The notes below the pieces were generated by a model, which worked only from the letters and a program-made list of their open reading frames with translations, was not told the DNA's origin and ran no database searches. Positions 15,849 through 59,582 of a stretch of DNA of 60,092 nucleotides are shown in pieces. The stretch is taken from assembly GCA_002321305.1 (NCBI GenBank), contig DCMF01000013.1, positions 1-60,092 on the forward strand, in the 5' to 3' direction. The stretch's first letter is position 1; every line of letters starts with the position of its first letter. The DNA comes from Verrucomicrobia bacterium UBA1629. GTDB lineage: Bacteria > Verrucomicrobiota > Kiritimatiellia > RFP12 > UBA1067. A program made the translations under genes and the position numbers.

Positions 15849-16517
15849 ATGAAGATTCAGGTTCTCCCGTCGTTTCTCGCGGCCGACTTGGGCCACCTCG
15901 CGGACGAGCTGCGGCGCGCCGAGGCGTCCGGGGCGGACGCGATTCACCTCGACATCATGGATCCGACGTTTGTGCCGAACATGAGCTTCGGGCCGTCCAT
16001 CGTCGACTTCTGCCGCAGGACGTGTCCGGACTTCTACCGCAACGTCCACCTGATGATGAGCCGCCCTGACCTCTACATCGAGGCGTTCGCGAAAGCGGGC
16101 GCGCAGACGATCCAGGTGCATGTCGAGGCGGACTGCGATCTGCACGCGGAGCTGCGGCGCATCCGCGCGCGCGGCCTCAAGAACGCGATCGTCCTCAATC
16201 CCGAGACGCCTGTCGAACGGCTGGAGCCGTATCTCGGCGAGGTGGACGAGATCCTTGTCATGACGGTGCATCCCGGCTTTGGCGGACAGACGTTCATCGC
16301 GGACTGCCTGCCCAAGCTGACGTATCTGCGGGAACGGCTGCCGACAATCGACCTGATGGTGGACGGCGGCGTGGACGCCGAGACGGCCGTTCTCGCCGCG
16401 CGCGCCGGCGCCAACCAGTTCGTCGCCGGCTCCTATCTTTTCAGACAACCCAGCATGAGGGCTGCGGTTGAAGAACTTCGAAAACGGATTTCCTATCCAC
16501 GGATTAGCACAGATTGA
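15849..16517 (+). CDS. rpe: ribulose-phosphate 3-epimerase
   Basis: LPSFLAADLG, HLDIMD and MTVHPGFGGQ. The last ~10 codons run into the ATCCGTG-family repeat. Confidence 0.92.
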   Translation: MKIQVLPSFLAADLGHLADELRRAEASGADAIHLDIMDPTFVPNMSFGPSIVDFCRRTCPDFYRNVHLMMSRPDLYIEAFAKAGAQTIQVHVEADCDLHAELRRIRARGLKNAIVLNPETPVERLEPYLGEVDEILVMTVHPGFGGQTFIADCLPKLTYLRERLPTIDLMVDGGVDAETAVLAARAGANQFVAGSYLFRQPSMRAAVEELRKRISYPRISTD

Positions 16518-16598
16518 CACGGATTTGAATCTGGGCGAATCCGTGAGATCCGTGGATAGAGAAATGCCTGAATCCGTGTAAATCCGTGAAATCCGTGG
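16484..16598. repeat. inverted arrays of the ATCCGTG word between rpe and coaC
   Basis: cacggat-type words at 16484..16528, then atccgtg words at 16541..16598. The 12-bp pair ctatccacggat (16493) and atccgtggatag (16545) is part of the array. Confidence 0.8.
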
Positions 16599-18100: not shown

Positions 18101-19738
18101 GTGAGGACCGTCGACTGCGACTATCTCGTCGTCGGGTCCGGCATGGCGGGCCTCATGAGCGCGCTTCACCTCGCCGCGTACGGCAAGGTCGCCGTCGTGA
18201 CGAAGGCGCGGCTTCAGGACTGCAACTCGAACTTCGCGCAGGGCGGCATCTGCTGCGTGGCGGATCCGGCGGACACCTTCGACAGGCACGCGCGCGACAC
18301 GATGATCGCCGGCGCGTGGCTCGGCAAGACCGAGGTCGTCCACGAGATCTGCGAGAACGCGCCCGCCGGCATCCAGGACCTCATCGACTGCGGCGTGCGC
18401 TTCGCGAAGAAGGAGGACGGCGCGTGGGACCTGACGCGCGAGGGCGGCCACAGCGCGCGGCGCATCTTCCACGCCGGCGACATCACGGGCGAGAAGTGCG
18501 AGGCGGCGATGATCCGCCGCGTGAAGCGCGAGAAGGCGATCGAGGTGCGCGAGCAGACGATCGTCATCGACCTCGTCATGTCCAACCGCATCGGCCTCAG
18601 GGGCGAGAAGCGCTGCGTGGGCGCGTACGTCATGGACAAGCCGACGGGCGAGATCTACGCGATCCGTTCGCCGAACACGATCCTCGCGACGGGCGGCTGC
18701 GGCAAGGTCTACCTCTACACGTGCAACCCCGACACGGCGACGGGCGACGGCATCGCGCTCGCGTGGCGCGCGGGGGCGAAGATCGAGAACATGGAGTTCA
18801 TCCAGTTCCACCCGACCTGCCTCTACCATCCGCAGGCGAAGCGCTTCCTCATCTCCGAGGCGGTGCGCGGCGAGGGGGCCGTCCTCGTCAACAAGCACGG
18901 CAAGGAATTCATGCGGAAGTACGATCCGCGCGGCTCGCTCGCGCCGCGCGACATCGTGGCGCGCTCGATCGACTCGGAGATGAAGCGCACGGGCGACGAC
19001 TGCATGTTCCTCGACATCCGCAAGAAGGGGGCGGACTACCTGAAGGCGCGCTTCCCGAACATCTACGCGAAGTGCCTCTCCTTCGGCATCGACATGGCGA
19101 AAGACCTCATCCCCGTCGTCCCCGCCGCGCACTACACCTGCGGCGGCATCCAGGCGACGACGGACGGGCGCACGTCGATTCGCGGGCTCTCTGCCGTCGG
19201 CGAGTGCGCCTGCACGGGGCTGCACGGCGCGAACCGCCTCGCGTCCAACTCGCTCATGGAGGCCCTCGTCTGCGCGCGCCTCACCGCCGCCCGCCTCGGC
19301 CCGCATCCGGAAACCTTCCAACCTCCTAAACCTTCCAAACCTTCCGAACCTTCCGAACCTTCCGAACTCGCCGCACCTGCGATTCCCGACTGGAAGATCG
19401 GGAGCGCCGTGCCGCCGGACGAGGCGGTCCTGGTCTCGCACATGTGGGACGAGATCCGCCGCCTGATGTGGGACTACGTGGGCATCGTCCGCACGAACAA
19501 GCGGCTCGCGCGGGCGGCGCACCGGCTGCGGACGCTCCGCCGCGAGATCCACGACTACTACTTCCGCTATCTCGTCACGCCGGACACGCTGGAGCTGCGC
19601 AACCTCGCGGTCTGCGCGGAGCTGATCGTGAAGAGCGCGCAGAAGCGCCACGAGTCGCGCGGCCTCCACTACACCCTCGACTACCCCCGCCAGTCCAGGC
19701 GTCCGAAGCAGACGGTGCTCGATGGCTACCGGGGATGA
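18101..19738 (+). CDS. nadB: L-aspartate oxidase
   Basis: DYLVVGSGMAGL FAD motif, HYTCGG, and GANRLASNSL. GTG 18101 is preferred (SD aaggag 6 nt upstream). GTG 18077 is the ORF-track start. Confidence 0.92.
   Translation: MRTVDCDYLVVGSGMAGLMSALHLAAYGKVAVVTKARLQDCNSNFAQGGICCVADPADTFDRHARDTMIAGAWLGKTEVVHEICENAPAGIQDLIDCGVRFAKKEDGAWDLTREGGHSARRIFHAGDITGEKCEAAMIRRVKREKAIEVREQTIVIDLVMSNRIGLRGEKRCVGAYVMDKPTGEIYAIRSPNTILATGGCGKVYLYTCNPDTATGDGIALAWRAGAKIENMEFIQFHPTCLYHPQAKRFLISEAVRGEGAVLVNKHGKEFMRKYDPRGSLAPRDIVARSIDSEMKRTGDDCMFLDIRKKGADYLKARFPNIYAKCLSFGIDMAKDLIPVVPAAHYTCGGIQATTDGRTSIRGLSAVGECACTGLHGANRLASNSLMEALVCARLTAARLGPHPETFQPPKPSKPSEPSEPSELAAPAIPDWKIGSAVPPDEAVLVSHMWDEIRRLMWDYVGIVRTNKRLARAAHRLRTLRREIHDYYFRYLVTPDTLELRNLAVCAELIVKSAQKRHESRGLHYTLDYPRQSRRPKQTVLDGYRG
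19309..19368 (-). repeat. AACCTTCC (reverse of GGAAGGTT) 9-nt tandem array, in frame in nadB
   Basis: aaaccttcc aaaccttcc gaaccttcc gaaccttcc gaac encodes PKPSKPSEPSEPSE. Confidence 0.85.
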
Positions 19739-26870: not shown

Positions 26871-29078
26871 TCACCACCAGCCCTTCGGTTCGGGGACTTC
26901 GGCGCTGCCGTTGAGGCGGATGAGATCCATCAGCACGCGGAACGACTCGTCCAGCACGACGTCGTTCTTCGCCCGCTCGTTGCGGCGGCGACGGCGCTTC
27001 TTCGCCGCCGTCTCGTCGTCGTCGTTCTCGTCCTCCTCGTCGTCCAGCTCGCGCAGTTCGCGGTCGGCCGCCATCTGGGCCTTGCGCGCGGCGTATTCGA
27101 GCGAGACGGTCTCGCGCTCGGAGATCTCCTTCATGCCCGTCACGTTCGCGATGTGCTTCGCGAACTTCTCGTCCTTCGCCGTCCGCTCGCGCGAGAGCTC
27201 GGCGAGCGCGGCGACGTAGCGGTGCTGGTCCCACGCGAGCGCGTAGTCCGCCGGACGGATCCGGCTGAACGGCAGGGCGTACGTCAGCTTGTCCTCGCCG
27301 ATGTCGAGCGAGTCGAGAAGCGAGGGCAGGTGGACGTCCGCCGCGACGCCCTCGACCTGCGTGGAGCGCCCGTCGATGCGGTAGAAGCGCGCCGTCGTGA
27401 TCTTGCACGAGCCGTACTTCTCCGGGCCGAGGCCCAGCACCGTCTGCACCGTGCCCTTGCCGTGCGTGCGGACGTCGCCGAGGACGACCGCGCGCCCCGT
27501 GTCCTGCAGGTGGCCCGCGACGATCTCCGAGGCGGACGCGCTCGCGCGGTCGGTCAGGACGACCATCGGCCGCTTGAAGGCGATCGGATTCCCCGGCGGA
27601 ATCGGCAGGCAGCCGACGGAGCGGACGTCGCGGATCTGGACGACCGGGCCGGACGGCACGAACAGCGCCGAGAGCATCACGGCCTCGCGCAGGGAGCCGC
27701 CGCCGTTGCCGCGCAGGTCGAGGACGAGCCCCTCGACGCCGAGCGCGTTGAAGTCGCAGAGGTAGCGCGCGATGTCCATCGCGCAGCTGCGGAAGCCGTC
27801 GTCGTTCGGACGCTTGTCCATCGTGCCGTAGAAGCCCGGCAGGTAGACGTAGCCGAGCTTGCGCTCGACGCCGTCCAGGGTGACGCGCTCGACGCGGCCC
27901 GTCGCCGCCTGGTCCTCCAGCTTGATCTCGTCGCGCACGAGCTCGATGAGCTTCTTCGTCGCGCCGGACGTGTCGGAGCGCGGCACGATCTGCAGCGTCA
28001 CGCGCGTGCCCTTCTTGCCGCGGATCTTCTTGATGGACTTCTTCATCGGCTGCCACATGACGTCTTCCATCTCGCCCTTGTCCTGCTGGACGCCGACGAT
28101 CCGGTCGCCTTCCTTGATGCGGCCGTCGACGTCGATCGGGCCGCCCGGCATGACCTCGACGATCTTGAGCGCGCCCTCGTCCATCGACAGCACCGCGCCG
28201 ACGCCGCAGAGCGTGAGGTTCATCTCCATGTCGAAGTCCTCCTTCGACGCGGGCGACATGTAGTCGGTGTGCGGATCGTACGCGCGGCCGAGCGCGCTCA
28301 GGTAGCTCTGGAGGACCGTCTCCTCGTCCGGCTCCGTCAGCACCGTCACGTACTGGCGGTACTTCTTGATCAGATCCGACGCCGCGTCGAGCCTGTTCGT
28401 GGACTTATCGAGGTCGTGGCTGACCTGCGCAACCAGCAGCTCGTTCTTCATCCGCTTGCGCCAGTGCTCCTCGGCCTCCTCGCGCGTCTCCGGCCACGGC
28501 GCGTCCTTGCGCCTGATGCGGTACGTCTCGTTCGTCGAGAAGTCCCACGTGCCGTGCGCGAGGAGGTTCGTCGCGAAATCGACGCGCTCGCGCAGACGCG
28601 CGACGTAGAGGTTGTAGAGGTCGTAGCCGAACGAGACGTCGCCGCGCCCGATCTCGTCGTCCAGCGTCGTCTCGTGCGCGGCGAGGCGGTCGAGGTCGGA
28701 CTTCAGGAAAACGGAATGGTCGAAGTCGTAGAACGTGACGAGGTTCGTCCAGGCGCGGCGCGAGATCTCGTCGTTCAGCGGCTGCTGCAGGACATGGTAC
28801 TTCGGCAGCATGCTCCCGAACCGCTGGGCGATGCGCCCGTAGTAGTTGCGCGGCTCGACGGCCTTCGCGGCCCCGCTGCCGAAAGCCCCAGCCGCGCCCC
28901 CGTTATCGAAAGCCCCCACCGCGCCCCCGTTATCGAAAGCCCCAGCCGCGCCCCCGTTACCGAAAGCCCCCACCGCGCCCCCGTTATCGAAAGCCCCAGC
29001 CGAATTCTCTTTATCGAAGGGGGCGGCTTCAGCCGCCCCAACGGCCAGGGCCAACCCCAGCCACAAGACGCTCTTCAT
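26871..29078 (-). CDS. prc: tail-specific (C-terminal processing, S41) protease
   Basis: Internal ATG (cat at 29076..29078). Signal peptide MKSVLWLGLALAVGAAEA, PDZ-like region, LDLRGNGGGSL, and [11 protein letters not shown]. 735 aa. Confidence 0.85.
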   Translation of the reverse strand: MKSVLWLGLALAVGAAEAAPFDKENSAGAFDNGGAVGAFGNGGAAGAFDNGGAVGAFDNGGAAGAFGSGAAKAVEPRNYYGRIAQRFGSMLPKYHVLQQPLNDEISRRAWTNLVTFYDFDHSVFLKSDLDRLAAHETTLDDEIGRGDVSFGYDLYNLYVARLRERVDFATNLLAHGTWDFSTNETYRIRRKDAPWPETREEAEEHWRKRMKNELLVAQVSHDLDKSTNRLDAASDLIKKYRQYVTVLTEPDEETVLQSYLSALGRAYDPHTDYMSPASKEDFDMEMNLTLCGVGAVLSMDEGALKIVEVMPGGPIDVDGRIKEGDRIVGVQQDKGEMEDVMWQPMKKSIKKIRGKKGTRVTLQIVPRSDTSGATKKLIELVRDEIKLEDQAATGRVERVTLDGVERKLGYVYLPGFYGTMDKRPNDDGFRSCAMDIARYLCDFNALGVEGLVLDLRGNGGGSLREAVMLSALFVPSGPVVQIRDVRSVGCLPIPPGNPIAFKRPMVVLTDRASASASEIVAGHLQDTGRAVVLGDVRTHGKGTVQTVLGLGPEKYGSCKITTARFYRIDGRSTQVEGVAADVHLPSLLDSLDIGEDKLTYALPFSRIRPADYALAWDQHRYVAALAELSRERTAKDEKFAKHIANVTGMKEISERETVSLEYAARKAQMAADRELRELDDEEDENDDDETAAKKRRRRRNERAKNDVVLDESFRVLMDLIRLNGSAEVPEPKGWW
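28880..29003 (-). repeat. 27-bp tandem repeat (~4.5 copies) coding a Gly/Ala-rich linker in prc
   Basis: cgaaagcccc(a/c)(g/a)ccgcgcccccgtta(t/c) units encode GAFDNGGAV/GAFGNGGAA repeats immediately after the signal peptide. Confidence 0.9.
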
Positions 29079-38178: not shown

Positions 38179-38660
38179 ACGAAACTGAGGCAAAACGAGT
38201 AGATTTGCCCGAATACGAGCTTTCCGGCATTGAGAACATCGTGCGCGGCGTCTGTGTCGTGGACGGACACGTCCTCCTGTGCCGTCCGAAGAAGGGCGGC
38301 TACACGTATCTGCCGGGCGGGCACATCGAATTCGGCGAGACGTCGCGCGCGGCCCTCGTCCGCGAAATGAAGGAGGAGACGGGGCAGGACGCAACCGTTG
38401 GCGGCTTCCTCGGCGTTGTCGAAAGCCAGTTTGAGCAGCACGGCAAGCCGCACTGCGAAATCTCGCTTGTCTATCGACTCGCACTGGGGGCCTGTCCCCA
38501 AGATTCGGGGGTCTGTCCCCACGTCGATGGCCGGGGGCTGTCCCCACGGTTGCCCGCTGTGGTGGCGCAGGAGGGCTGGATCGAATTTGTCTGGTGGCCG
38601 CTCGCGAAACTGAACGAAGCGAATCTTTTGCCGCCGGAAATGGCAAGATATGTTGAATAG
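38175..38660 (+). CDS. NUDIX hydrolase
   Basis: Internal ATG 38175 (ATGA overlap with the ruvC stop). Nudix box GGHIEFGETSRAALVREMKEETG. Confidence 0.85.
   Translation: MNETEAKRVDLPEYELSGIENIVRGVCVVDGHVLLCRPKKGGYTYLPGGHIEFGETSRAALVREMKEETGQDATVGGFLGVVESQFEQHGKPHCEISLVYRLALGACPQDSGVCPHVDGRGLSPRLPAVVAQEGWIEFVWWPLAKLNEANLLPPEMARYVE
38486..38546 (+). repeat. three CTGTCCCC words, in frame in the NUDIX gene
   Basis: gggggcctgtcccca (38486..38500), gggggtctgtcccca (38507..38521) and gggggctgtcccca (38533..38546). They encode GACPQDSGVCPHVDGRGLSP. Confidence 0.85.
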
Positions 38661-39564
38661 TCTTCGGTCGTGTGTCCTCTGTCCGCATCGGTGCGGGGTT
38701 GACCGCACAGGGCTTGGGGACAGACCCCATGGGTTTTGCGGGGCTGGGGACAGGCCCCGCGTCTTTCGGTGGGGGCCGCACTTCGGCGAGGAGCCGCCGA
38801 TCACGGGCGAACGCGGTTCGGGCTGCGTCTTCTTCTCGCGCTGCACGATGAAGTGCCTCTACTGCCAGAATTCGCCGTGGAGCTGGAAGGGCGCGGGGAC
38901 AGACCTCACGGTGGCGGGGCTGGCGGACATCCTCCGCGACCTGGCCGTGAAGGATCGGGTCGAGAACTGGAACCTCGTCTCGCCGACGCCCTATCTGCCA
39001 TTTATCCGCGAGGCGGCTGAAATCTTAAAGAAAGAGGGCGTTTCGCTTCCGTTTGTGTGGAATTCGTCTGGCTATGAGCGCGTCGAGACCCTCGAAACCT
39101 ATACGGAACTGTGCGATTGCGCGCTTTTCGACTTGCGGTATGCGCAGAACGCGACAGCGATTCGGTATTCGTCCGCGCCCGGCTATGTCGAAGCCGCGCG
39201 AGACGCCGTGCGCTGGGCCTGGATGAGAACGCCGTGCGGAAAATCTTCCCTGCCGCGCCTCATCGTGCGCATCCTCGTCCTGCCGGGGCTGGCGGACGAG
39301 GCGATTGAGAGCCTGGCGTGGCTGGCGACGGAACTCTCGAACGAAGTTCCCGTCTCGATTATGGCGCAGTACACGCCCGCCTACCGGGCGCTGGAGACGC
39401 CGCCGCTCGACCGCGCGGTGATGCGCGACGAATACGAGTCGGTGACGGAGGCTGCGGCGGACTTCGGCTTCGAGAACGGCTGGATTCAGGGCTATGAGGC
39501 GTCCGACCCGAAATTGGCTCTCCTCGGCGAGAACATGACCGCCGACCACGGCACGGTGCGCTGA
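38650..39564 (+). CDS. radical SAM protein (PflA-like activase family)
   Basis: CxxxCxxC cluster motif CTMKCLYC. The N-terminal CPHRCGVDR... pattern is typical of this subgroup. Confidence 0.8.
   Translation: MLNSLRSCVLCPHRCGVDRTGLGDRPHGFCGAGDRPRVFRWGPHFGEEPPITGERGSGCVFFSRCTMKCLYCQNSPWSWKGAGTDLTVAGLADILRDLAVKDRVENWNLVSPTPYLPFIREAAEILKKEGVSLPFVWNSSGYERVETLETYTELCDCALFDLRYAQNATAIRYSSAPGYVEAARDAVRWAWMRTPCGKSSLPRLIVRILVLPGLADEAIESLAWLATELSNEVPVSIMAQYTPAYRALETPPLDRAVMRDEYESVTEAAADFGFENGWIQGYEASDPKLALLGENMTADHGTVR
38715..38758 (+). repeat. two GGGGACAG words (reverse orientation of 38486..38546), in frame in the radical SAM gene
   Basis: tggggacagacccc (38715..38728) and tggggacaggcccc (38745..38758) are exact reverse complements of 38508..38521 and 38487..38500. 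A third, looser copy lies at 38893..38907. Confidence 0.85.
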
Positions 39565-39568
39565 TTTG

Positions 39569-39577
39569 TGATATACT
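39569..39577 (+). promoter_or_regulatory. extended -10 promoter (TGaTATACT), near-leaderless spacing
   Basis: tgatatact ends 10 nt before ATG 39588. Confidence 0.55.
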
Positions 39578-39587
39578 ACGCGGCCAT

Positions 39588-41891
39588 ATGAAAAACAAGA
39601 AGATGTTTTTGGTGGCCGCCACAGTGATGTGCGCGGCGGGTGTTTTTGCGGCGCATGAGGGCGGTCCCCCGCCCTATCCGAACTTCGGCCTGCCCCGTGT
39701 GGAAGAGATGATGTTCCTCGTCCTGCAGATCGGCCTCATCATCTTTGCGGCCCGCGTGGGCGGCGCACTGGCCTCCTGCCTGAAGCTGCCGTCCATTCTC
39801 GGCGAACTCGCGGCCGGCATCGTGATCGGCCCGTGGGCGCTCGGCGGCATCGGCTTCGGCGACGGGCTGTTCGCGTCCGGCCTCTTCCACGGCGCGGAAC
39901 TGCGCGCGATCGCGAAGGAGACGGGCCACATGTTCGACGCGACGTCGCCCGCGCTCTACGGCATCGCGACGCTCGCGTCGGTGATCCTCCTGTTCCTGTC
40001 CGGCCTCGAGACGAACCTGAAGCTCTTCCTGCGCTACTCGTTCGTCGGCCTCATGGTCGGCCTCGGCGGCGTGATCGTCTCGTTCCTGTTCGGCGACCTC
40101 TGCGCGGTCTACCTGCTGCCGGAGTTTTTCGAGCACTTCGCCTACCTGAAGGGTCTGCCGCTTGCGGAGGCGATGACGAAGGAGGCGCCGCTCTACATGG
40201 GCATCATGTCCACGGCGACGTCGGTCGGCATCACGGCGCGCATCCTCTCCGAGAAGAAGCAGATGGACTCCGAGGAGGGCGTGACGATCATGGCGGGCGC
40301 CGTGATCGACGACGTCCTCGGCCTCATCGTGCTGGCGATCGGCAACGGCATCATCGTCGCGAACCACGCGGCGGCGAAGGCCGGCGGCGCGGCGGGCGCG
40401 ATGGACTGGGGCGCGATCGGCCTCGTCGCCCTGAAGGCGTTCGGCGTCTGGCTCGGCGCGACGGCGATCGGGCTTCTCGCGGCGCGCTACATCGCGAAGT
40501 TCCTGAAGGCGGCGTTCAAGAGTCCCGTCGTCATCGCGACGATGGCCTTCGGCCTCGCGCTCGTCCTCGCGGGCTTCTTCGAGTTCATGGGGCTGGCGAT
40601 GATCATCGGCGCCTACGTGATGGGCCTCGCGCTCTCGCGCACCGACCTGAAGCACCCGATCCAGGAGATGCTGACGCCCGTCTACACGTTCCTCGTGCCC
40701 GTCTTCTTCTGCTCGATGGGCATGATGGTCGACGTCTCGGCGCTCTGCTCGAAGCCGGTCCTGATCTTCGGCGGCATCTACACGGCGCTCGCCGTCGCGG
40801 CGAAGGTGGTCGGCTGCATGATCCCCTCGATGTGCTGCGGCTTCAACCTGCTGGGCGGCCTCCGCATCGGCGCGGGCATGGTGCCGCGCGGCGAAGTCGC
40901 GCTCATCATCGCGGGCCTCGGCCTGTCGAGCGGCTTCCTCACGCAGGAGATCTTCGGCATCGGCATCCTGATGACGCTCGTCACGACGGTCGTCGCGCCG
41001 CCCGCGCTCGTCGGACTGTTCGCGCCGAAGCGCCGGGGCGTGCGGCATCCGAAGCAGAGCCACGACAACTCGCGTCCCGTCGTCTTCGAGCTCTCGTCGC
41101 CCGAAGTCGCGCAGCTCGTCCTGGAGAAGCTGGTCGCGGAGTTCCGCGAGGAGGGCTTCTTCACGTCGCTCCTGTCGAAGGAGGACAGCATCTGGGAGAT
41201 CGCGATGGACAACATGGAGCTTTCGGTCGAGCGTTCGGGGAACGTGATCAAGGTCTCCTGCACGCCGGCGGAGGAGGCGATCGTCATGACGGCGTGGATG
41301 GAGGTCGCGTCCGAGATGAACGACCTCGCGCGCCAGATCGCGAAGCCCATCCGCCGCGAGGAGGTCGACCGGATGCTGGCGGACGGGCCGTCCGCCGCGA
41401 AGCCGCGCCACACGAACGTCGGCCGCCATCTCCAGCACTTCGTGATGCTGCCGAAGTTCAAGGCGGCGTCGAAGAAGGAGGCAATCGAGAAGATGGTCGC
41501 CGAGATCGCGGCGGCGTGTCCGTCGCACGTGAAGGACGTCAAGGAGGCGACGGCGGCGGTTCTCCGGCGCGAGGCGTCGATGCCGACCGGCCTCGACCAC
41601 GGCATCGCCGTGCCGCATGGCCGGTGCGCCGAGGTGGAGGGCATCGTCGGCGCGGTCGCGATCCTCGACAACGCGGGCACGGCGAACGGCTGCATCCCGG
41701 ACTACGAGACGATCGACAACTCGCCGCTGTCGATCATCGTCCTCACGATCGCGAACGACGCGACGCAGACGCCGTACCTGCAGCTGATGAGCTTCATCTC
41801 GAAGGCCCTGCGCGGCGACAACGGCTATCAGAAGCTCGCGCAGTGCACGACGGCGGAGGAGATGCGCAAGTTCTTCAAGAGCGTCAAGTGA
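39588..41891 (+). CDS. cation:proton antiporter (CPA2/Kef-type) fused to a C-terminal PTS EIIA(Ntr/Fru)-type domain
   Basis: About 12 TM segments with [11 protein letters not shown] and GLE motifs. The C-terminal ~150 aa (…KKEAIEKMV…, [22 protein letters not shown]) match the EIIA type 2 pattern, including the phosphorylatable His. Confidence 0.75.
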
Positions 41892-43288
41892 GTCAAGAGA
41901 CCATTGCCGCGATTGCGACCGCGCCCGGCCCTGCCGGGGTCGCGGTCGTGCGCGTTTCGGGGCCGGAGGCGTTCGCCGTCGCCGCGCGCCTGACGCGCGA
42001 TCGCTTCGCGCCCCCGTCTGGGGCTTTGCCGCAGGCGCGCGTCTGCGCCCTGTTCCCAACCTCCCCAACCTCCCACCCCCCCCAACCTCCCAAACCCCCA
42101 AACCTCCCAAACCTTCCAAACCTCGACACCGCCGTCGTTCTCGCCTTTCGCGCGCCCCATTCCTACACGGGCGAAGACGTCGTCGAGTTCCAGTGCCACG
42201 GCGGGGCGGTCACGCCGCGCCGCGTGCTGGAGGCCTGCTTCGCCGCCGGGGCGCGGCTCGCGCGGCGCGGCGAGTTCACCGAGCGCGCGTTCCTGAACGG
42301 CAAGCTCGACTACGACCAGGCGGAAAGCGTCCTCGACCTCATCCAGGCGAAGACCGCGCGCGCGGCGGACGCCGCGCTGGACGGACTCGCCGGACGCCGC
42401 GCGCGCACCAACCGAGACCTTTACGACCGTGCGCTCGCCCTGTCGTCCGAACTGGAGCATGCGCTCGACATCGACGAGGGCGAGTTGCCCGACAGCTTCT
42501 TCGCGTCGCTCCGCACGTCGCTCGCCTCGCTCGACGCGGCGCTTGGCGCGGCGGCGGCGCGCATCCGTGCGGGACGCATCCTGCGCGACGGTGCGCGGGT
42601 CGTCCTTGCGGGGCCGCCGAACGCCGGCAAGAGTTCGCTCTTGAACGCGCTGCTGGAGGAGAGCCGCGCGCTCGTGAGCGACGTGCCCGGCACGACGCGC
42701 GATTCGGTCGAGGCGTGGCTGGACTTGGACGGCTGGCCGATCCGGCTCATCGACACGGCGGGTCTGCGCGAGACGGACGACGCGCTCGAGGCCGCCGGCG
42801 TGAAGCGCGCCGAGAATCTGATCGCCGAAGCCGACGTGATAATCGCTCTGGGCGTTCGGCCTTTGTCCGCTGTCGGCTGTCCTTCGTCCCCCTCACCCCT
42901 CACCTCTCACCCCTCACCTCTCAACTCGCCCTCCCTCCTCCCCATCCACGCCAAGTGCGACCTGGGGCGCGGCGAAGGGCTGAACGTCTCGGCGAAGACG
43001 GGCGAGGGGCTGGGCGAACTCAGGCGGGCGATCGTGGACGCGCTCGAACGGCGGGCGGCGTCCGCCGTGCCGGAAGGGGCGTCCGACGCGCCTGACGACC
43101 GGGCGCTGTCGGCCCTGTGCGCGGCGCGCGCGCACCTCGCGCCCCTCGTGTCCGACGCGCCGCTCGACCTTGTTTTGGCGGGGAACGCGGTGCGGACGGT
43201 CGCCGAATCGCTCGGCGCGCTCGTCGGCGCGACCTACTCGTCCGACCTGCTGGACAGCCTCTTCTCGCGCTTCTGCGTCGGCAAGTGA
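41888..43288 (+). CDS. mnmE: tRNA modification GTPase
   Basis: GTG 41888 (GTGA overlap with the upstream stop). [45 protein letters not shown] and the C-terminal FCVGK. Confidence 0.9.
42051..42124 (-). repeat. AACCTCCC/AACCTTCC word array (reverse of the GGAAGG family), in frame in the mnmE N-terminal domain
   Basis: ttcccaacctccccaacctcccaccccccccaacctcccaaacccccaaacctcccaaaccttccaaacctc encodes [24 protein letters not shown]. Confidence 0.85.
42859..42943 (+). repeat. composite insertion (TGTCC words followed by CCTCACC words), in frame in the mnmE G domain
   Basis: cctttgtccgctgtcggctgtccttcgtcc followed by ccctcacccctcacctctcacccctcacctctcaac encodes [28 protein letters not shown]. Confidence 0.8.
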
Positions 43289-44536: not shown

Positions 44537-44622
44537 GAAATAATCGAATGAACGAATAATCGAATGAACGAATGAACGAATAATCGAATGGTCGAATGGC
44601 CGAATGAACGAATGATCGAATT
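44536..44622 (+). repeat. CGAATG octamer array (left arm)
   Basis: gagaaataatcgaatg aacgaata atcgaatg aacgaatg aacgaata atcgaatg gtcgaatg gccgaatg aacgaatg atcgaat, with ~8-nt period. Confidence 0.9.
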
Positions 44623-44640
44623 TTGAAGGAGGTTTAGAAT

Positions 44641-45345
44641 ATGAATGATTGCAAGAGACAGGGAAACGAGAGAATGTGTGCGGAAAACCATGATTCGCCG
44701 ATTCGATCATTCGACAACTCGATTATTTCCCGCATTTCCCGACCTGGCTTTACCCTCATCGAGATGCTGGTGGTTCTCGGCATCCTCGCGGTGCTGATCG
44801 GCGCCAGCCTGGCGGCGTTCACGTCATCGACGAAAAAGGCCCAGAAGGCGAAGGGCCAGGAGCTCGTGCACAACGTGGCCACCGCCCTTGAGAAGATCTA
44901 TCAGGAGGAAGGGTCGTGGCCTCGCCGGATTCTCACCGGCAGCAACAACGAAAACGGCATTGACGAGAAGATCGCCTATACGATTGCCAAGCACAACGGC
45001 CTCTCGCTTTCGTATGACGATACCAAGAAGGAGACGACGGCCCTCGACCAGTGCGGCGTCGTCTCGCCCTGGGCGCAGGACGTGATTCGCCGCAAGAAGG
45101 GACAGGGCGTGAGCGAGGGAACGAAGGTCCCGTCCGGCGGCACGATCAAGACGCATCGCTTGCGCTACGCCGTCGATACGGACGGGCGCGGCTTCGTGAC
45201 GGCGAACGTCGAGGGCGAGTCCGTCACGATTCGCGGGTCGGTCGCGGTCTGGTGCGCCGGCTACGACGGCAAGTTCGAGAAGTACAAGGACGGCCTCCGC
45301 AAGGACGACATCTACAGCTGGGGCCGGGAACAGGTCAAGGAATAG
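44641..45345 (+). CDS. prepilin-type N-terminal cleavage/methylation domain protein with a long leader
   Basis: SD gaaggagg upstream of ATG 44641. The RPG-FTLIEMLVVLGILAVLIG motif starts only at residue 36. The leader contains a repeat-encoded SPIRSFDNSIIS. C-terminal WCAGYDGKF. Confidence 0.75.
   Translation: MNDCKRQGNERMCAENHDSPIRSFDNSIISRISRPGFTLIEMLVVLGILAVLIGASLAAFTSSTKKAQKAKGQELVHNVATALEKIYQEEGSWPRRILTGSNNENGIDEKIAYTIAKHNGLSLSYDDTKKETTALDQCGVVSPWAQDVIRRKKGQGVSEGTKVPSGGTIKTHRLRYAVDTDGRGFVTANVEGESVTIRGSVAVWCAGYDGKFEKYKDGLRKDDIYSWGREQVKE
44691..44733 (-). repeat. CATTCG array (right arm, inverse of 44536..44622) inside the pseudopilin leader codons
   Basis: tgattcgccgattcgatcattcgacaactcgattatttcccgc. 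Pairs 44700..44713 with 44607..44620 and 44719..44732 with 44537..44550 (imperfect). Confidence 0.85.
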
Positions 45346-51764: not shown

Positions 51765-51899
51765 GGGAAATAATCGAATGATCGAATGAATGAATAATCG
51801 AATTGTCGAATGATCGAATGGGCGAATGGGAAATAATCGAATGGTCGAATGATCGAATGGTCGAATAATCGTTGAATGGGCGAATTGTGGAAGGATTGA
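51765..51899 (+). repeat. CGAATG octamer array (left arm of the cassette around the 4HB gene)
   Basis: gggaaataatcgaatgatcgaatgaatgaataatcgaattgtcgaatgatcgaatgggcgaatgggaaataatcgaatggtcgaatgatcgaatggtcgaataatcgttgaatgggcgaat... Confidence 0.9.
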
Positions 51900-52307
51900 A
51901 TGGGCGAGTTGAAGATGCGGAGTGTTGAGGATAAATTGGCGTTCAAAAGGAGGCTGGAGAATCGGACTTCTGATTTTGCCGTTGCCGTCTTTCGGATGTT
52001 GGACGCATTGCCGCTTGCCGTTTCATCAAAGGTTATCGCGTTTCGGCTTGGGAAGTCCGCGTCTTCTGTCGGCGCCAATTACCGTGAAGCCAATCGGGCG
52101 GAGTCACCTGACGATTTTAATCACAAAATCGGCATTGTTCTCAAGGAATGCGCCGAATCGCTGTATTGGCTTGAAATGCTCCATCGGTTGTACGCGGAAG
52201 ATTGCGTCTCGCAAGATCTCCTAAAGGAATGTGACGAACTTGTTCGAATTTTTCAAACCATCAGGCGACGTATTCATGACAAACGAAAGGCGAGTAATGA
52301 ACTCTAA
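51900..52307 (+). CDS. four-helix-bundle protein (23S rRNA intervening-sequence protein/S23p family, Avd-like)
   Basis: 135 aa. Family signature ...RLGKSASSVGANYREANRAES..F.HKIGIVLKECAESLYWLEML. Confidence 0.85.
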   Translation: MGELKMRSVEDKLAFKRRLENRTSDFAVAVFRMLDALPLAVSSKVIAFRLGKSASSVGANYREANRAESPDDFNHKIGIVLKECAESLYWLEMLHRLYAEDCVSQDLLKECDELVRIFQTIRRRIHDKRKASNEL

Positions 52308-53379
52308 TTCCATCCCCAATTCAACGATTCGATCATTCGACGACCCGATTATTTCCCCTTCGACGATTCGATCATTCGATCATTCGATTATTTCTCCCGG
52401 CTTCACCCTCATCGAGCTTCTCATCGTCATCGCCATCATCGGCGTCCTGTCCGGCGTTCTGCTCACGAGCTTCTCCGGCGGGACCGAATCGGCGCGCGCG
52501 GCGAAATGCCTCTCGAACATGCGCAACCTTGCGCAGGGCGCAATCAGCGTCGCGTCGAAGAAAGCCTGGTTCCCGTATGCCGGCAGCTACGCCGTCGTCG
52601 GCGCCAACAGCGAGGGGAAGACCGTCTATTCCGAACGTGTCGGCTGGATCAGCTGGCTGTCGAAGAACGACGAGTACGGGACGCGGACGCGCGGACGCTC
52701 GAAGCCGACGAGCTTTGTCAACTGCGACAATCCCGGCGCCTATTGCAGCCCGAGCGGACAGGACGAGGACGGCGATTTCGCGCTCTCCAACGGCGAGCTG
52801 TGGACGGCTGTCGGGCGCGAGCGCGCGGTCTACACGTGCCCGGAGCACGTCCTGCGCGCCGGCAAGAAGAACGTGCGCGTCCGGTGGAGCTACGTGATGA
52901 ACGCCGCCTTTGGCTATGACTTCACGAAGGGAAGCGATGCCGTGGGCACGAGCGACGGCAGCGAAGGCATCCACTTCAGCAGCTCGCGCCTTGACCGCCG
53001 CCTCCTGTTCGCCGAGCTGCCGATCAGCGGTGAGCCTGTGCCTTCGACCGAGATGAGCGCCAAGCAGCAGGATTCCTATTCGGTTGGCGACGGGAATCCG
53101 CTGACGGACTGCGTGCTGCAGTACAAGGCGAACGTCAACGGCAAGGGCTACAATTCCGATTGGAGCGGCGAGGCGGAATCGATCGCCTTCAACCACAAGA
53201 GCGGCAAGCGCTGGTGTGCGCACGTCGTCTTTGCCGACGGGCACACGGAGAAGCTGCTGGCGCCGCGCACGTCCGGCGGGCTTTCGGACGAGCAGCTGAC
53301 GGCTCTGCTCTGCGCGGGCGTGGACGTCGGCTTCGACGGCTCGACCTATTCGCTCATCGACAAGGGCGATGAGAATTGA
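52297..53379 (+). CDS. DUF1559-type prepilin-like protein (H-X9-DG family) with a long leader
   Basis: SPG-FTLIELLIVIAIIGVLSG, AKCLSNMRNLAQ, and C-terminal HVVFADGHTEKL. ATG 52297 gives a 35-aa leader that is encoded largely by the repeat (TIRSFDDPIIS, TIRSFDHSIIS). ATG 52231 or 52276 are also possible. Confidence 0.8.
   Translation: MNSNSIPNSTIRSFDDPIISPSTIRSFDHSIISPGFTLIELLIVIAIIGVLSGVLLTSFSGGTESARAAKCLSNMRNLAQGAISVASKKAWFPYAGSYAVVGANSEGKTVYSERVGWISWLSKNDEYGTRTRGRSKPTSFVNCDNPGAYCSPSGQDEDGDFALSNGELWTAVGRERAVYTCPEHVLRAGKKNVRVRWSYVMNAAFGYDFTKGSDAVGTSDGSEGIHFSSSRLDRRLLFAELPISGEPVPSTEMSAKQQDSYSVGDGNPLTDCVLQYKANVNGKGYNSDWSGEAESIAFNHKSGKRWCAHVVFADGHTEKLLAPRTSGGLSDEQLTALLCAGVDVGFDGSTYSLIDKGDEN
52318..52397 (-). 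repeat. CATTCG array (right arm, inverse of 51765..51899)
   Basis: 52372..52393 (tcattcgatcattcgattattt) is the exact reverse complement of 51768..51789. 52325..52358 pairs imperfectly with 51828..51860. Confidence 0.9.
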
Positions 53380-56624: not shown

Positions 56625-56663
56625 CGAGGGCTGGGGCGTTCGCTCCAGCCCTCGGTGTCTTTG
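56625..56663 (+). terminator. putative intrinsic terminator
   Basis: A 10-bp stem cgagggctgg/ccagccctcg with a 10-nt loop, followed by gtgtctttgg. Starts 35 nt after the stop codon. Confidence 0.55.
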
Positions 56664-56671
56664 GCGGGCGG

Positions 56672-56880
56672 CCGTTGTCCGCTGTCCTTTGTCCAACGTC
56701 CCCTGTTTGTCCGCTGTCCTTTGTCCAACGTCCCCTGTTTGTCCGTTGTCTTTTGTCCTTTGTCAGAAAGACCAGAGAGGACAAAGGACGAAGGACAGAG
56801 GACAAAGGCATCAGGGCGGACAGCGGACTGCCGGAACGAAGGACAGCGGACGACGGACAAAGGCATCAGGGCGGACAAGC
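56672..56880. repeat. TGTCC word arrays: 32-bp tandem units followed by the inverse GGACA array (long imperfect hairpin)
   Basis: The unit ttgtccgctgtcctttgtccaacgtcccctgt occurs at 56675..56706 and 56707..56738, with a partial third copy. ggacaaagg/ggacagcgg words then run from 56779 to 56880 in the opposite orientation. Confidence 0.9.
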
Positions 56881-56911
56881 GGCGCTGTCGCTTGTCTTCT
56901 GTCGTCAAATT

Positions 56912-56920
56912 TGGTACACT
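56912..56920 (+). promoter_or_regulatory. extended -10-like promoter (TGgTACACT), leaderless spacing
   Basis: tggtacact ends 9 nt before ATG 56930. Confidence 0.45.
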
Positions 56921-56929
56921 TTCTTTGTC

Positions 56930-57688
56930 ATGAACCCTTCGATTCCTTCAATCATCGGGCATTTTGGCGGCTATCGCAAGATGTTCTCCTTCGGGTGGAC
57001 GTGTCTCGTCTATCATGCGACGACGCTTTTCTGCCGACGCAACTACAATTACAAGAACGACGCCCTCGGCAAGACCGTTGGCCAGATGGTCGGTGCGGCG
57101 CGTTCGGCGCGGCAGAACATTGTCGAGGCCTCGTCGCGCGCGGCGACCTCGAAGGAGCAGGAACTGAGGCAGCTCGATGTCGCCAAGGGGTCGCTGGACG
57201 AATTGGCGGGCGATTTCGAGGCGTTTCTCGTCGATTGCGGCGAAGTGCCGTGGTCGCGGCGTGATCCGCGTTACGCGGCCGTCCGTGCGCTGGAACTTGA
57301 TCCTTTTGAGAAGTCCGATGACCTTGATCACGAATATGGCGCCTATACGCTGCGCATGCGCGCCCGCTGTGCGGCCTGGCTTGAGAGCGAAGACCCGATT
57401 GTGGCCGCGAACGCGATCCTGATCGTGATTCGCCGCGCTTGCGCGCTGCTGATGGGCCAGATGCAGCGCACGGCGGCGGACTTCACGGCCGAAGGGGGCT
57501 TTACCGAACGCTTGAGCGCGGCGCGGCTCGCGGCGCGAGACGCGGCGGTACAGGCGGCGGGTGCGCCGACGTGTCCGAAGTGCGGCAAGCCGATGCGCAA
57601 GATGGTCGCGCGCAAGGGGCGCAATGCCGGCAATGCCTTTTGGAGCTGCACGGGTTATCCTGACTGCAACGGGACGCGCGAGTATTGA
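56930..57688 (+). CDS. four-helix-bundle protein with suffix domain, fused to a topoisomerase-type C4 zinc finger
   Basis: Internal ATG 56930. GGYRKMFSF..., QMVGAARSARQNIVEASSRAATSKEQELRQLDVAKGSLDELAGDFEAFL, and EGGFTERL fit the 4HB plus suffix pattern. The C-terminal CPKCGKPMRKMVARKGRNAGNAFWSCTGYPDCNGT is zf-C4_Topoisom-like. Confidence 0.75.
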   Translation: MNPSIPSIIGHFGGYRKMFSFGWTCLVYHATTLFCRRNYNYKNDALGKTVGQMVGAARSARQNIVEASSRAATSKEQELRQLDVAKGSLDELAGDFEAFLVDCGEVPWSRRDPRYAAVRALELDPFEKSDDLDHEYGAYTLRMRARCAAWLESEDPIVAANAILIVIRRACALLMGQMQRTAADFTAEGGFTERLSAARLAARDAAVQAAGAPTCPKCGKPMRKMVARKGRNAGNAFWSCTGYPDCNGTREY

Positions 57689-57691
57689 TTC

Positions 57692-57768
57692 GTGTCCGTC
57701 TCGTTTGTCCCGCCCCGTCCGTCCTTTGTCCAGTCCCCGTTTGTCCGCTGTCCGCCGTCGGTTGTCCT
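57692..57768 (+). repeat. TGTCC word array downstream of the 4HB-zf gene
   Basis: gtgtccgtctcgtttgtcccgccccgtccgtcctttgtccagtccccgtttgtccgctgtccgccgtcggttgtcc. 57743..57756 is the exact reverse complement of 56815..56828. Confidence 0.9.
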
Positions 57769-57941
57769 TGAAAAGGTCTTCGCGTGTCTTTGCGCCTCGT
57801 CCCTTTGCATTCTTCGCGTCAAACCCAAAACACCCTGAAGGTGCGACGAAGCCGACAGGGATGCGCGAAGCGCAACTCTCTGTCTTCTCCTGTCGCCCAG
57901 CCGTAGGCCGCTCTGTGGCGTTCGCGACCGTACCCACGCCG

Positions 57942-57984
57942 GTTTGGGCACGAAATATCAGAAATCAGAATTTCGTGCCCAAAC
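57942..57984. promoter_or_regulatory. perfect 15-bp inverted repeat abutting the -35 box of the ATPase promoter
   Basis: gtttgggcacgaaat (57942..57956), a 13-nt loop, then atttcgtgcccaaac (57970..57984). No T-run follows. The -35 box starts at 57989. Confidence 0.6.
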
Positions 57985-57988
57985 GGCA

Positions 57989-58018
57989 TTGACTTGTCCA
58001 TCTGAACTGTGATATAAT
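57989..58018 (+). promoter_or_regulatory. sigma70-type promoter (TTGACT-18-TGaTATAAT)
   Basis: ttgact at 57989..57994 and tgatataat at 58010..58018. ATG 58058 lies 39 nt downstream. Confidence 0.65.
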
Positions 58019-58057: not shown

Positions 58058-59515
58058 ATGAAGTTTATCGGCCGAACCGAGCAAATCAATCAGCTTTCTG
58101 CGCTTTGGCGCAAAGGCTCCTCCTCGTTGGTGACCTGTCAGGGCCGTCGACGCATCGGGAAGAGCCGGCTGATGGATGAATTCGCGGCGCGAAGCGGCTG
58201 CCGTTATCTGAAGCTTTCCGGGCTTGCTCCGCGAAAGGGGATGACGAATGACGACCAGCTTCGGTATTTCTGCCAGCGGCTTGGCGAGAAGACGGGCGCA
58301 GACGGCCTCGTGGCCCGCAACTGGCCTGAGGCGTTTGCCTTGCTGAATGCGGAAGTCGCTCGGCACGCATCAGAACGAATGGTTGTCCTTCTGGACGAGA
58401 TCTCGTGGATGGGCAAGTATGATTCGGATTTTCCGGGGTATCTCAAGGACGCATGGGATGACGGCCTCAAGCAGCACGAGAGGCTGATACTGGTCCTGTG
58501 CGGCTCGGTCTCCTCCTGGATTCAGCGGAACATCCTTGACAGCACGGGCTTTGTCGGGCGCATTTCGCTCGAACTGGTCTTGGGGGAACTGCCCGTGCGG
58601 GACTGCCTGCAGTTCTGGCGGCAGTCGGCAGACGGCGTCTCGTCCCGCGAGGTGTTCGACCTCCTGTCCGTCACGGGAGGCGTGCCGATGTATCTTGAGG
58701 AGATCGACCCGACGCTGACGACCAACGAGAACCTGCGGCGCATGGCCTTTACGAAGGGCGGCACTCTGTTCAATGACTTCACGCGCATCTTCAATGACGT
58801 CTTCGGGGCGAAGGCGAAGGACAAGCGGCAGATCCTCTCGGCGCTGGCGTTTGAGTCGAAGACCCTTTCGGAGATTTCGGAGAGCCTTGGGAAGGTTCGT
58901 GGCGGACACGTCTCGGAGGCCCTGGAAGAGCTTGAGCTGGCCGGCTTCCTTGAACGGGACGGCGGCATCAATCCGGCCACGGGCAAGGAGGCGAAGATCG
59001 CCCGCTATCGCATACGGGACAACTATACGCGCTTTTACCTGCGCTTCATCGAGCCTTATTCGGCGATGATCCGTCGCGGTGCGTTCAACTTCGTTTCGCT
59101 TGAGACGTTGCCGGGCTGGGATTCGATTCTCGGCCTCCAGTTCGAGAACCTGGTGCTGAACAACGCCTCGGAGCTGATTTCCCGTCTTGGGCTTGATCGC
59201 TCGCTGGTTCTCTCCGTCGCGCCCTATCGGAAGCGGGCGTCGCGTGAGAGGCGAAAGGCGGAATCGGATTCGGGATGCCAGATCGACATCCTCATCCAGC
59301 TGCGGCAGGCGATGTATCCCGTCGAGGTGAAACGGCGGAATGCGATTGGCGTGGAGGTGGTCGAGCAGATGAAGGAGAAGGTTGCGCGGCTGCCGAATCC
59401 CAACGCGGTCTCCATTCGCCCCGTCTTGGTCTATGACGGCAGCCTGTCGCCTGCCATTGTCGAGAATGCCTACTTTGCCGACGTGGTGTCGGCGGCTGAC
59501 TTGCTGCTTCGGTGA
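58058..59515 (+). CDS. archaeal-type AAA ATPase (Arch_ATPase plus DUF234-like C-terminus)
   Basis: FIGRTEQINQL, P-loop-like GRRRIGKSRL, Walker B-like VVLLDEISW. The C-terminal region has a winged-helix-like segment and a possible nuclease-like end (QIDILI...EVKRR). Confidence 0.7.
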   Translation: MKFIGRTEQINQLSALWRKGSSSLVTCQGRRRIGKSRLMDEFAARSGCRYLKLSGLAPRKGMTNDDQLRYFCQRLGEKTGADGLVARNWPEAFALLNAEVARHASERMVVLLDEISWMGKYDSDFPGYLKDAWDDGLKQHERLILVLCGSVSSWIQRNILDSTGFVGRISLELVLGELPVRDCLQFWRQSADGVSSREVFDLLSVTGGVPMYLEEIDPTLTTNENLRRMAFTKGGTLFNDFTRIFNDVFGAKAKDKRQILSALAFESKTLSEISESLGKVRGGHVSEALEELELAGFLERDGGINPATGKEAKIARYRIRDNYTRFYLRFIEPYSAMIRRGAFNFVSLETLPGWDSILGLQFENLVLNNASELISRLGLDRSLVLSVAPYRKRASRERRKAESDSGCQIDILIQLRQAMYPVEVKRRNAIGVEVVEQMKEKVARLPNPNAVSIRPVLVYDGSLSPAIVENAYFADVVSAADLLLR

Positions 59516-59550: not shown

Positions 59551-59582
59551 CGTTTGTCCGCTGTCGTTTGTCCTTTGTCCGC
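59551..59582 (+). repeat. TGTCC word copy downstream of the ATPase gene
   Basis: cgtttgtccgctgtcgtttgtcctttgtccgc. Confidence 0.85.

Follow-up and report, generated by a model that had tools for sequence, protein, structure and literature searches.

In contig DCMF01000013.1 of Verrucomicrobia bacterium UBA1629, the gene of a 252-residue protein (56930..57688, + strand), which combines a four-helix-bundle (4HB) core with a TIGR04258 suffix domain and a C-terminal zinc ribbon, is bracketed by arrays of 7-nucleotide (nt) words that form a complete palindrome upstream and half of one downstream. The window analysed here is one 60-kb stretch (60,092 nt) of this gut Kiritimatiellae genome. Our results showed that the association of this 4HB gene with heptad palindromes is conserved and specific to the subfamily of the protein. 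To judge from sequence comparison, the unit can be read as a self-contained gene-repeat module whose protein would recognise its own heptad arrays, similar to RAYT/REPIN or omega/iteron systems, and we lean modestly towards this reading.

The left arm of the upstream element (56672..56765, +) is composed of about 13 TTTGTCC/GCTGTCC heptads, which are arranged in a 32-nt higher-order unit repeated 2.6 times (TRF: 56675-56758, 96% matches, sub-periods of 7 nt). A 13-nt loop, AGAAAGACCAGAG (56766..56778, +), separates it from the right arm of GGACA(A/G)A heptads (56779..56880, +), which contains two 42-nt higher-order units (56781-56822 and 56836-56877). The right arm pairs with the left arm and partly also with the TGTCC array downstream of the gene. 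The complementarity between the arms of the upstream element is 79-90%, in several alternative registers. When 56660-56890 was folded as single-stranded DNA, the predicted energy was -68.2 kcal/mol, versus -38.8 +/- 3.9 kcal/mol in shuffled sequences (z = -7.6). The pattern GTCC-N3-GTCC-N3-GTCC occurs 7 times in the window, always inside the upstream element (56677-56858), where 0.02 occurrences were expected. Clusters of TGTCC/GGACA (at least 3 per 60 nt) were only found at 56.6-56.9, 57.7-57.8, 59.5 and 38.5 kb. At 38480-38552 there are three GGGG(N)CTGTCCCCA copies about 24-30 nt apart, which are distinct from the heptad arrays. A CRISPR array was ruled out, since the units are contiguous 7-nt words without spacers and do not resemble genuine type I-C arrays. 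The window gave no result in Rfam and tRNA scans, and no Rfam family reached its gathering score.

Downstream of the gene, only TGTCC/GTCC heptads are present (57692..57768, +). In L011, the nearest relative, the GGACA arm that the window lacks is found at that place, and a loop near-identical to that of the window occurs in both elements. Because L011 has a complete palindrome with the same loop on both sides of the gene, the downstream element of the window was regarded as a half-element. The nucleotide similarity between the window and L011 begins at 56586, the end of the upstream 845-residue gene, which is closed by a terminator-like GC hairpin (56625..56654, +; a 13-pair stem, then a T-rich tail). 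The upstream gene of L011 is a different one, and the sequences match from the stop codon of that gene on.

An earlier sequence-only reading of the window had described the upstream TGTCC array, its inverse GGACA array and the downstream TGTCC array, together with a perfect 14-nt inverted repeat (56815-56828/57743-57756) and two further TGTCC copies. All of them were recovered at the same positions. The inverted repeat exists because both of its sites belong to one word family, and the enclosing stem across the TGTCC cassette is one predicted pairing beside the local hairpins. The further copies are a third array of 4 heptads, 36 nt past the stop codon of an ATPase gene (59551..59582, +), and 3-4 heptads in frame in mnmE (42859..42885, +).

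The assignment of the gene to the 4HB-suffix/zinc-finger type agrees with our searches as well. TIGR04258 (NCBIfam) matched residues 158-203 at 3.5e-15 (55.7 bits, cut-off 40), and PF01396, the topoisomerase-type C4 zinc ribbon, matched at 7e-8 (32.5 bits, cut-off 32). For the 4HB core, TIGR02436 was marginally above its cut-off (24.7 versus 24) and PF05635 was below it (24.5 versus 33.8). The cysteines C215, C218, C240 and C246 are invariant among 24 homologues. The AlphaFold model (pLDDT 86) showed an all-helical bundle plus a small C-terminal ribbon, and its best structural neighbours in Foldseek were 2gsc and 2rld of the S23/4HB family, with weak scores (E about 0.1-1). PHROGs gave a weak zinc-ribbon match only, the PDB sequence search gave similarity only at the zinc-ribbon level, and no match was found in the PADLOC scan of the protein. 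The database search returned 835 matches, of which the best 120 are 65-98% identical, and after clustering at 50% the family counts 140 members (E<=1e-30). Contigs of about 1 kb carry many of these homologues, which would fit flanking repeats that break assemblies. No relatives were observed in phage records or viral contigs.

The pairing of gene and heptads was then followed across 80 loci (one genome per species), mostly from Kiritimatiellae, Lentisphaerae/Victivallales and Verrucomicrobia. The locus nearest to the window is CAKUGW010000040.1 of an 'uncultured Kiritimatiellaeota'. GGACAAA/TTTGTCC hairpins were found on both sides of the gene in L001 and L010, whose proteins are 70% and 85% identical to that of the window; the base composition of these two loci is quite different, and their hairpin loops and remaining spacer are unrelated. 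The TGTCC word is restricted to the closest clade. In unbiased k-mer counts, the other clades showed words of their own (GGACTTC, GGACTTG, GCGACTT, CGACAT, GAGACGC and GAGAGAC), with the same word up- and downstream of the gene. A 7-mer repeated at least 5 times was present in the flanks of 66/83 loci, and 59 of these 66 words contained GAC or GTC (chance 0.15, p = 2e-41). For control genes from the same loci, such a 7-mer was found in 48/243 cases, with GAC/GTC in only 12 of the 48. The distance from one GAC to the next was 7 nt in 45% of cases, versus 6.7% in the background. The similarity between the upstream and downstream flanks had a median of 84 (18 for controls), and 75% of the targets were above the 95th percentile of the controls. 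Short-period arrays occurred in 72% of the target flanks (111/155) versus 11% of the control flanks (67/600).

These comparisons bear on an alternative, also raised by the sequence-only reading, in which the intergenic regions of Kiritimatiellae are full of short-word arrays as genome-wide filler and the 4HB genes merely happen to be there. At least six further word families are indeed present in the window, several at a great distance from 4HB genes, and for 20% of the control genes, too, the flanks contain a 7-mer in 5 or more copies. However, the arrays at control genes are rarer and mostly without GAC, so that the enrichment at the 4HB-suffix gene is strong and specific to GAC words. Filler would also not explain why the same word stands on both sides of the gene, why paralogues within one genome have their own words, or why different species share the word but not the loops. 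We consider such a coincidence highly improbable.

The non-core bases of the heptads follow the protein. Their distance was correlated with protein distance (Mantel r = 0.58), a value that was reached by 0/2000 permutations, and the upstream-to-downstream distance between word profiles was 0.38 within a locus versus 1.46 between loci. Paralogues in one genome bin use different heptads, for example (AGGACAa versus GAGACcT; GAGACG versus cgGACTT). The GAC core and the 7-nt period are kept down to 47% protein identity and across phyla, and the neighbouring positions change. A monophyletic group of about 13 loci provides a fixed setting for this comparison. In these loci (L051, L059, L061, L065, L066, L070, L072-L074, L076, L077, L079 and L085, all with hairpins) cas7 is on one side of the gene and cas4-cas1 on the other, in type I-C systems whose CRISPR arrays are long (at least 39 repeats in L065 and L066). 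The heptads differ among these loci despite the common context, and therefore the word tracks the protein and not the insertion site. A published list in which '23S rRNA IVP' is associated with CRISPR adaptation modules agrees with this context (PMC10910872). The start of the type I-C repeat, GTCGCG, is loosely like the GCGAC heptads of L066, which was left as a probable coincidence. The proposal of the sequence-only reading, a separate repeat family for every 4HB paralogue, was thus supported: GAC heptads track the phylogeny of the protein, paralogues within a bin differ, and plain 4HB relatives, as described below, carry CG[AG]AT words instead.

The main rival to recognition by the protein is co-inheritance with concerted evolution. 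Here the arrays would be structural hairpins (bidirectional terminators, RNase III sites or mRNA-stabilising stems) inherited together with the gene, and the words would drift in each lineage by slippage or gene conversion. The position of the hairpins, which also fits recognition by the protein, is compatible with such a role. They lie close to the gene: the upstream hairpin stops about 40 nt short of the ATG, the downstream one starts about 24 nt past the stop codon, and the median number of paired positions is 34. A GAAAGG ribosome-binding-like motif, 8-12 nt upstream of the ATG, is present in most relatives. This leaves little room for a promoter between hairpin and motif at most loci, and therefore the upstream hairpin probably lies within the transcript. 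Further support comes from the plain 4HB relatives, which have exactly the layout of an intervening sequence, and from Coxiella, where RNase III cuts the stem whose loop holds the 4HB open reading frame (ORF; PMC4990558). The copy number of an array also varies between close strains (21 nt, 3 heptads, in mnmE). However, drift leaves both the GAC core and the 7-nt period unexplained at 47% identity and across phyla, and it does not account for other words near other genes of the same genomes. No specific word is needed by RNase III or by terminators, and no consistent G.U bias of the sense strand was seen. This explanation, which fails on the conserved core and period, appears rather unlikely to us, with a share of probability that is still considerable.

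The window and L011 depart from most relatives in front of the gene. Instead of the GAAAGG motif, they have a promoter-like TTGTCT-17 nt-TACACT preceded by TG, which in the window (56892..56920, +) ends 9 nt before the ATG and may provide a leaderless start. The leaderless promoter of the sequence-only reading was not confirmed: a consensus promoter scan found no site at 56892-56920, and the arrangement itself is present and conserved in L011. The candidate leaderless promoter is special to the lineage of the window.

Recognition of the arrays by the protein could work as follows. A palindromic element brackets the gene, and both of its arms consist of tandem heptads that share a GAC/GTC core (AGGACA[AG]/TTTGTCC in the window). 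The protein, probably oligomeric like other 4HB/Avd proteins, would bind its own heptad arrays in a sequence-specific manner. The near-invariant zinc ribbon and the N-terminal helices would read the constant GAC, and a clade-specific face of the suffix-domain helix (168-182) would read the variable bases. In cis, the bound arrays may serve as boundary, processing or regulatory elements and let the gene sit inside foreign operons. Copies elsewhere may act as cognate dispersed repeats, like REPINs for RAYT genes. In our alignments, the positions that distinguish the clades are concentrated at residues 111-135 and along one face of the suffix-domain helix (168, 171, 172, 175, 179, 182), and the zinc ribbon and helices 48-100 are nearly invariant across clades. 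This pattern fits a split in which the variable bases and the constant GAC are read by different parts of the protein, and it is only suggestive because the clades were defined from the same tree.

Several observations weigh against recognition of the arrays by the protein. Co-diversification of gene and word is also expected from mere co-inheritance and homogenisation by slippage and gene conversion. The zinc ribbon aside, no catalytic domain and no classical DNA-binding domain was recognised in the protein. The window contains only two remote copies of TGTCC arrays (42859 and 59551), so that dispersal over the whole genome is no more than a possibility. Arrays are lacking at four low-GC loci (L012, L017-L019) from outside PVC (Planctomycetes-Verrucomicrobia-Chlamydiae), and a plasmid search gave a single distant homologue, from Prevotella, without zinc ribbon and without arrays; the protein can therefore exist without them. 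The evidence comes mostly from metagenome-assembled genomes. The bias of stem mismatches (G.T versus A.C) was heterogeneous between clades and gave no strand or RNA signal. The polarity of the hairpins, with the GAC arm or the GTC arm first, is variable even inside a clade. Variable polarity and inconsistent mismatch bias do not separate a DNA target from an RNA target; recognition of a symmetric double-stranded form, or of both strands, is favoured by them.

The 4HB gene is the constant core of the unit, and the neighbouring genes vary, except in the type I-C group. This reverses the picture of the sequence-only reading, where the 4HB gene was the cargo of a cassette. L001 and L003 encode the same protein in different surroundings, and their common part is exactly hairpin-gene-hairpin-ATPase; an indel between them consists of a third hairpin and a Tle1-like gene, both present in L001. 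In about 20 loci, the element of the gene is repeated in neighbouring gaps, where it brackets HsdM, Fic, RhuM, RluA and prepilins, among others. In the window, a gene for an ATPase (58058..59515, +; PF01637, PADLOC candidate defence family PDC-S27, with a PD-(D/E)XK-like C-terminus) lies between TGTCC arrays. It was rejected as a conserved partner, since just one weak relative was found among 84 loci. Directly 5' of this gene, a 20-bp hairpin (ccggtttgggcacgaaat...atttcgtgcccaaacgg, 57940-58018) precedes a near-consensus promoter, TTGACT-18-TATAAT with TG.

Such mobility of context would also be expected of a foldback or MITE-like transposable element, in which the arrays are terminal inverted repeats, the transposase is encoded elsewhere and the 4HB gene is a frequent passenger. 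The many unrelated gene contexts, the indel of the Tle1-like gene with one hairpin, the extra hairpins around diverse neighbours, the assemblies that often break at the flanks (contigs of about 1 kb) and the palindromic word-array elements in frame within mnmE orthologues all fit this explanation. Yet no transposase is linked to the unit, and the protein is highly conserved (65-98% identity over the best 120 matches), unlike a passive passenger. The core of the word is specific to the 4HB-suffix/zinc gene family, and the gene is stably and vertically retained within the type I-C cas operons. We therefore regard a foldback element as distinctly improbable.

Recognition of word arrays may extend beyond the suffix/zinc subfamily. 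The window carries a sister cassette (51769..52394, +) with a plain 4HB gene (51900-52307) between a CGAATG octad array (51769-51892) and its inverse (52319-52394). The inverse array also encodes the leader of a prepilin-like gene (52298-53379). Metagenome relatives of the plain 4HB gene were at most 52% identical among the matches listed, and a metagenome scan for PF05635/TIGR02436 proteins matched at least 600 stretches, with 568 confirmed relatives among the matches listed. Around the plain 4HB genes, inverted flank similarity was above the 95th percentile of the controls in 43% of the loci, and there was no direct similarity. Arrays of period 7-10 were found in 66/81 loci, and in 20 loci the same unit is inverted on the two sides. 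These words share the core CG[AG]AT/AAT[CT]CG.

The layout of the plain loci is an array upstream, its inverse downstream and the ORF enclosed, with a clear stem for the cassette at 51.8-52.4 kb and its relatives. The sequence-only reading had taken the two cassettes of the window to share one design. This did not hold: the plain 4HB gene is in the loop of one large stem, and the suffix/zinc gene is between two palindrome copies, of which the downstream one is half in the window. No 23S rRNA motifs were found in the plain loci, and they are therefore not rRNA intervening sequences. A purpose-built hidden Markov model applied to the window and 90 loci detected only the known plain 4HB gene, which leaves the other word families of the window without a local 4HB partner.

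Two hairpins of the window are built from related words. In the first (44539-44715), the ribosome-binding site and the start codon of a second prepilin-like gene (44641-45345) stand between a CGAATGA array (44539-44621) and the inverse of that array (about 44690-44715), and no 4HB gene is in the loop; the leader of this gene contains the same inverse-array-encoded 'IRSFD..SIIS' peptide as the pilin at 52298-53379. An intergenic hairpin at 16498-16597 is made of CACGGATT and AATCCGTG words with no 4HB gene nearby, and its AATCCG core is the commonest word flanking plain 4HB genes in unrelated metagenomes.

Tandem words of 7-9 nt also occur in frame in conserved genes of the window. A GGAAAGGT array lies in uvrB (3233-3296), AATCCGTG arrays occur twice in a GT8 glycosyltransferase gene (3643-3675 and 3926-3953), and a AACCTTCC array is in a FAD flavoprotein gene (19311-19378). 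mnmE contains a CCCAAACC array (42054-42124) and, following its TGTCC words, CCCCTCA heptads (42889-42923). The TGTCC words of mnmE sit at a loop that is hypervariable among orthologues, and MnmE orthologues have different low-complexity inserts at the same three loops. One 95%-identical mnmE orthologue differs by exactly three heptads (21 nt), and another (L172, 1925-1990) has a complete in-frame palindrome of GGAAAAG words, loop and CTTTTCC words in the G domain. The variation of these inserts indicates that the arrays are dynamic and able to enter coding sequence. In L171, a relative that is 95-99% identical, a 185-nt long-stem palindrome not based on words (9822-10006) stands between mnmE and the gene of a Na+/H+ exchanger; the window has no such element at the corresponding point (41896/41897). 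L171 has no nucleotide similarity to the window outside 39556-43288, and the synteny between them is therefore mosaic.

The base composition is not uniform along the window. The G+C content is 0.56-0.59 in the 44-45 kb block and in most 1-kb blocks of 50-59 kb (exceptions: 0.66 at 53-54 kb and 0.63 at 57-58 kb), compared with 0.63-0.72 over most of 2-43 kb. The pilin-like genes, the two 4HB cassettes and the gene of the defence-like ATPase all fall into this low-G+C stretch, which has the appearance of an acquired island. An ORF of 1018 codons on the minus strand contains a 27-nt tandem repeat (5 copies, 28866-29018; TRF also gave 54- and 81-nt periods).

In the literature, we found no description linking 4HB or intervening-sequence proteins to tandem-word arrays. 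The logic of the unit is like that of RAYT/REPIN and omega/iteron systems and its layout like that of intervening sequences; the protein class and the array-built arms differ. In REPIN-RAYT systems, as here, a single-copy gene has palindromic repeats of its own to the left and to the right, each gene subfamily goes with another repeat family, and the genome contains additional copies of the repeats in other places. However, RAYTs are homologues of HUH/Y1 (IS200/IS605-like) transposases, whereas the Pfam and NCBIfam searches gave only 4HB, suffix and zinc-ribbon models for our protein, and REPs are unique-sequence hairpins of about 20-35 nt in place of arms of tandem heptads. The omega repressor of pSM19035 and ParR-parC use contiguous 7-bp sites, direct and inverted, beside promoters, and the small, oligomerising protein that binds these sites cooperatively has its gene close by. 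Omega and ParR belong to the ribbon-helix-helix class, are encoded on plasmids and function in partition and copy control. In contrast, the unit described here has no ParA-like partner, and its arrays are on both sides of the gene.

Likenesses also exist to repeats without a dedicated protein. The cyanobacterial STRR sequences are dispersed heptamer repeats. Dispersed heptamer repeats (STRR/TAACTGA) share with our arrays the tandem 7-nt words, several families per genome, the mostly intergenic and sometimes translated position, a patchy distribution and no known origin, but they are mostly direct repeats without an inverse arm, and the taxon and the link to a gene differ. The TAACTGA heptamer repeats were reported from Beggiatoaceae, Cyanobacteria and Bacteroidetes with no mention of a partner gene (PMC4679880). 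Rickettsia palindromic elements are likewise in-frame palindromes at permissive loops, comparable to the GGAAAAG/CTTTTCC element of the L172 mnmE and the TGTCC words in the mnmE of the window, but they are unique sequences of 100-150 nt without an associated gene.

The 23S rRNA intervening sequences with a 4HB ('S23p') ORF in Leptospira and Coxiella, which were called selfish and horizontally acquired (PMC4990558), have a protein of the same superfamily (PF05635/TIGR02436) and an ORF between complementary stem-forming termini. The cassette of the window differs from them in lying between protein-coding genes, with no Rfam match in the window, and in having arms made of word arrays; the suffix/zinc subfamily also has two complete palindromes and not one enclosing stem. 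Avd of the diversity-generating retroelements has a homologous four-helix-bundle fold (PMC10053308) and acts as a nucleic-acid-binding cofactor encoded next to the sequence that is acted on. In contrast to our unit, Avd is without a suffix domain and zinc ribbon, and the unit has neither a reverse transcriptase nor a template/variable repeat pair.

PF05635/TIGR02436 proteins are very common, and to our knowledge they have no known function outside diversity-generating retroelements. The clade-matched pairing with heptads gives them a testable candidate activity, the binding of arrays, together with a candidate specificity helix. It touches CRISPR biology, since one clade lies between the interference and adaptation genes of type I-C systems, and a small protein that could be programmed to recognise 7-nt words would be attractive for engineering. 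The pairing also connects three unexplained phenomena, namely rRNA intervening sequences, dispersed heptamer repeats and palindromic insertions in genes. A wider and more tentative possibility, which we find doubtful on present comparisons, is that 4HB proteins (the Avd/23S intervening-sequence superfamily) in general are sequence-specific binders of short tandem words, and that each subfamily maintains, and perhaps generates or spreads, its own arrays, with a GAC core in the suffix/zinc subfamily and CG[AG]AT in the plain one. If true, gene and repeat would form a symbiosis of a new class, with no transposase involved, and this would explain the dispersed heptamer repeats, the hairpin arms of rRNA intervening sequences and the in-frame inserts in housekeeping genes of Kiritimatiellae.

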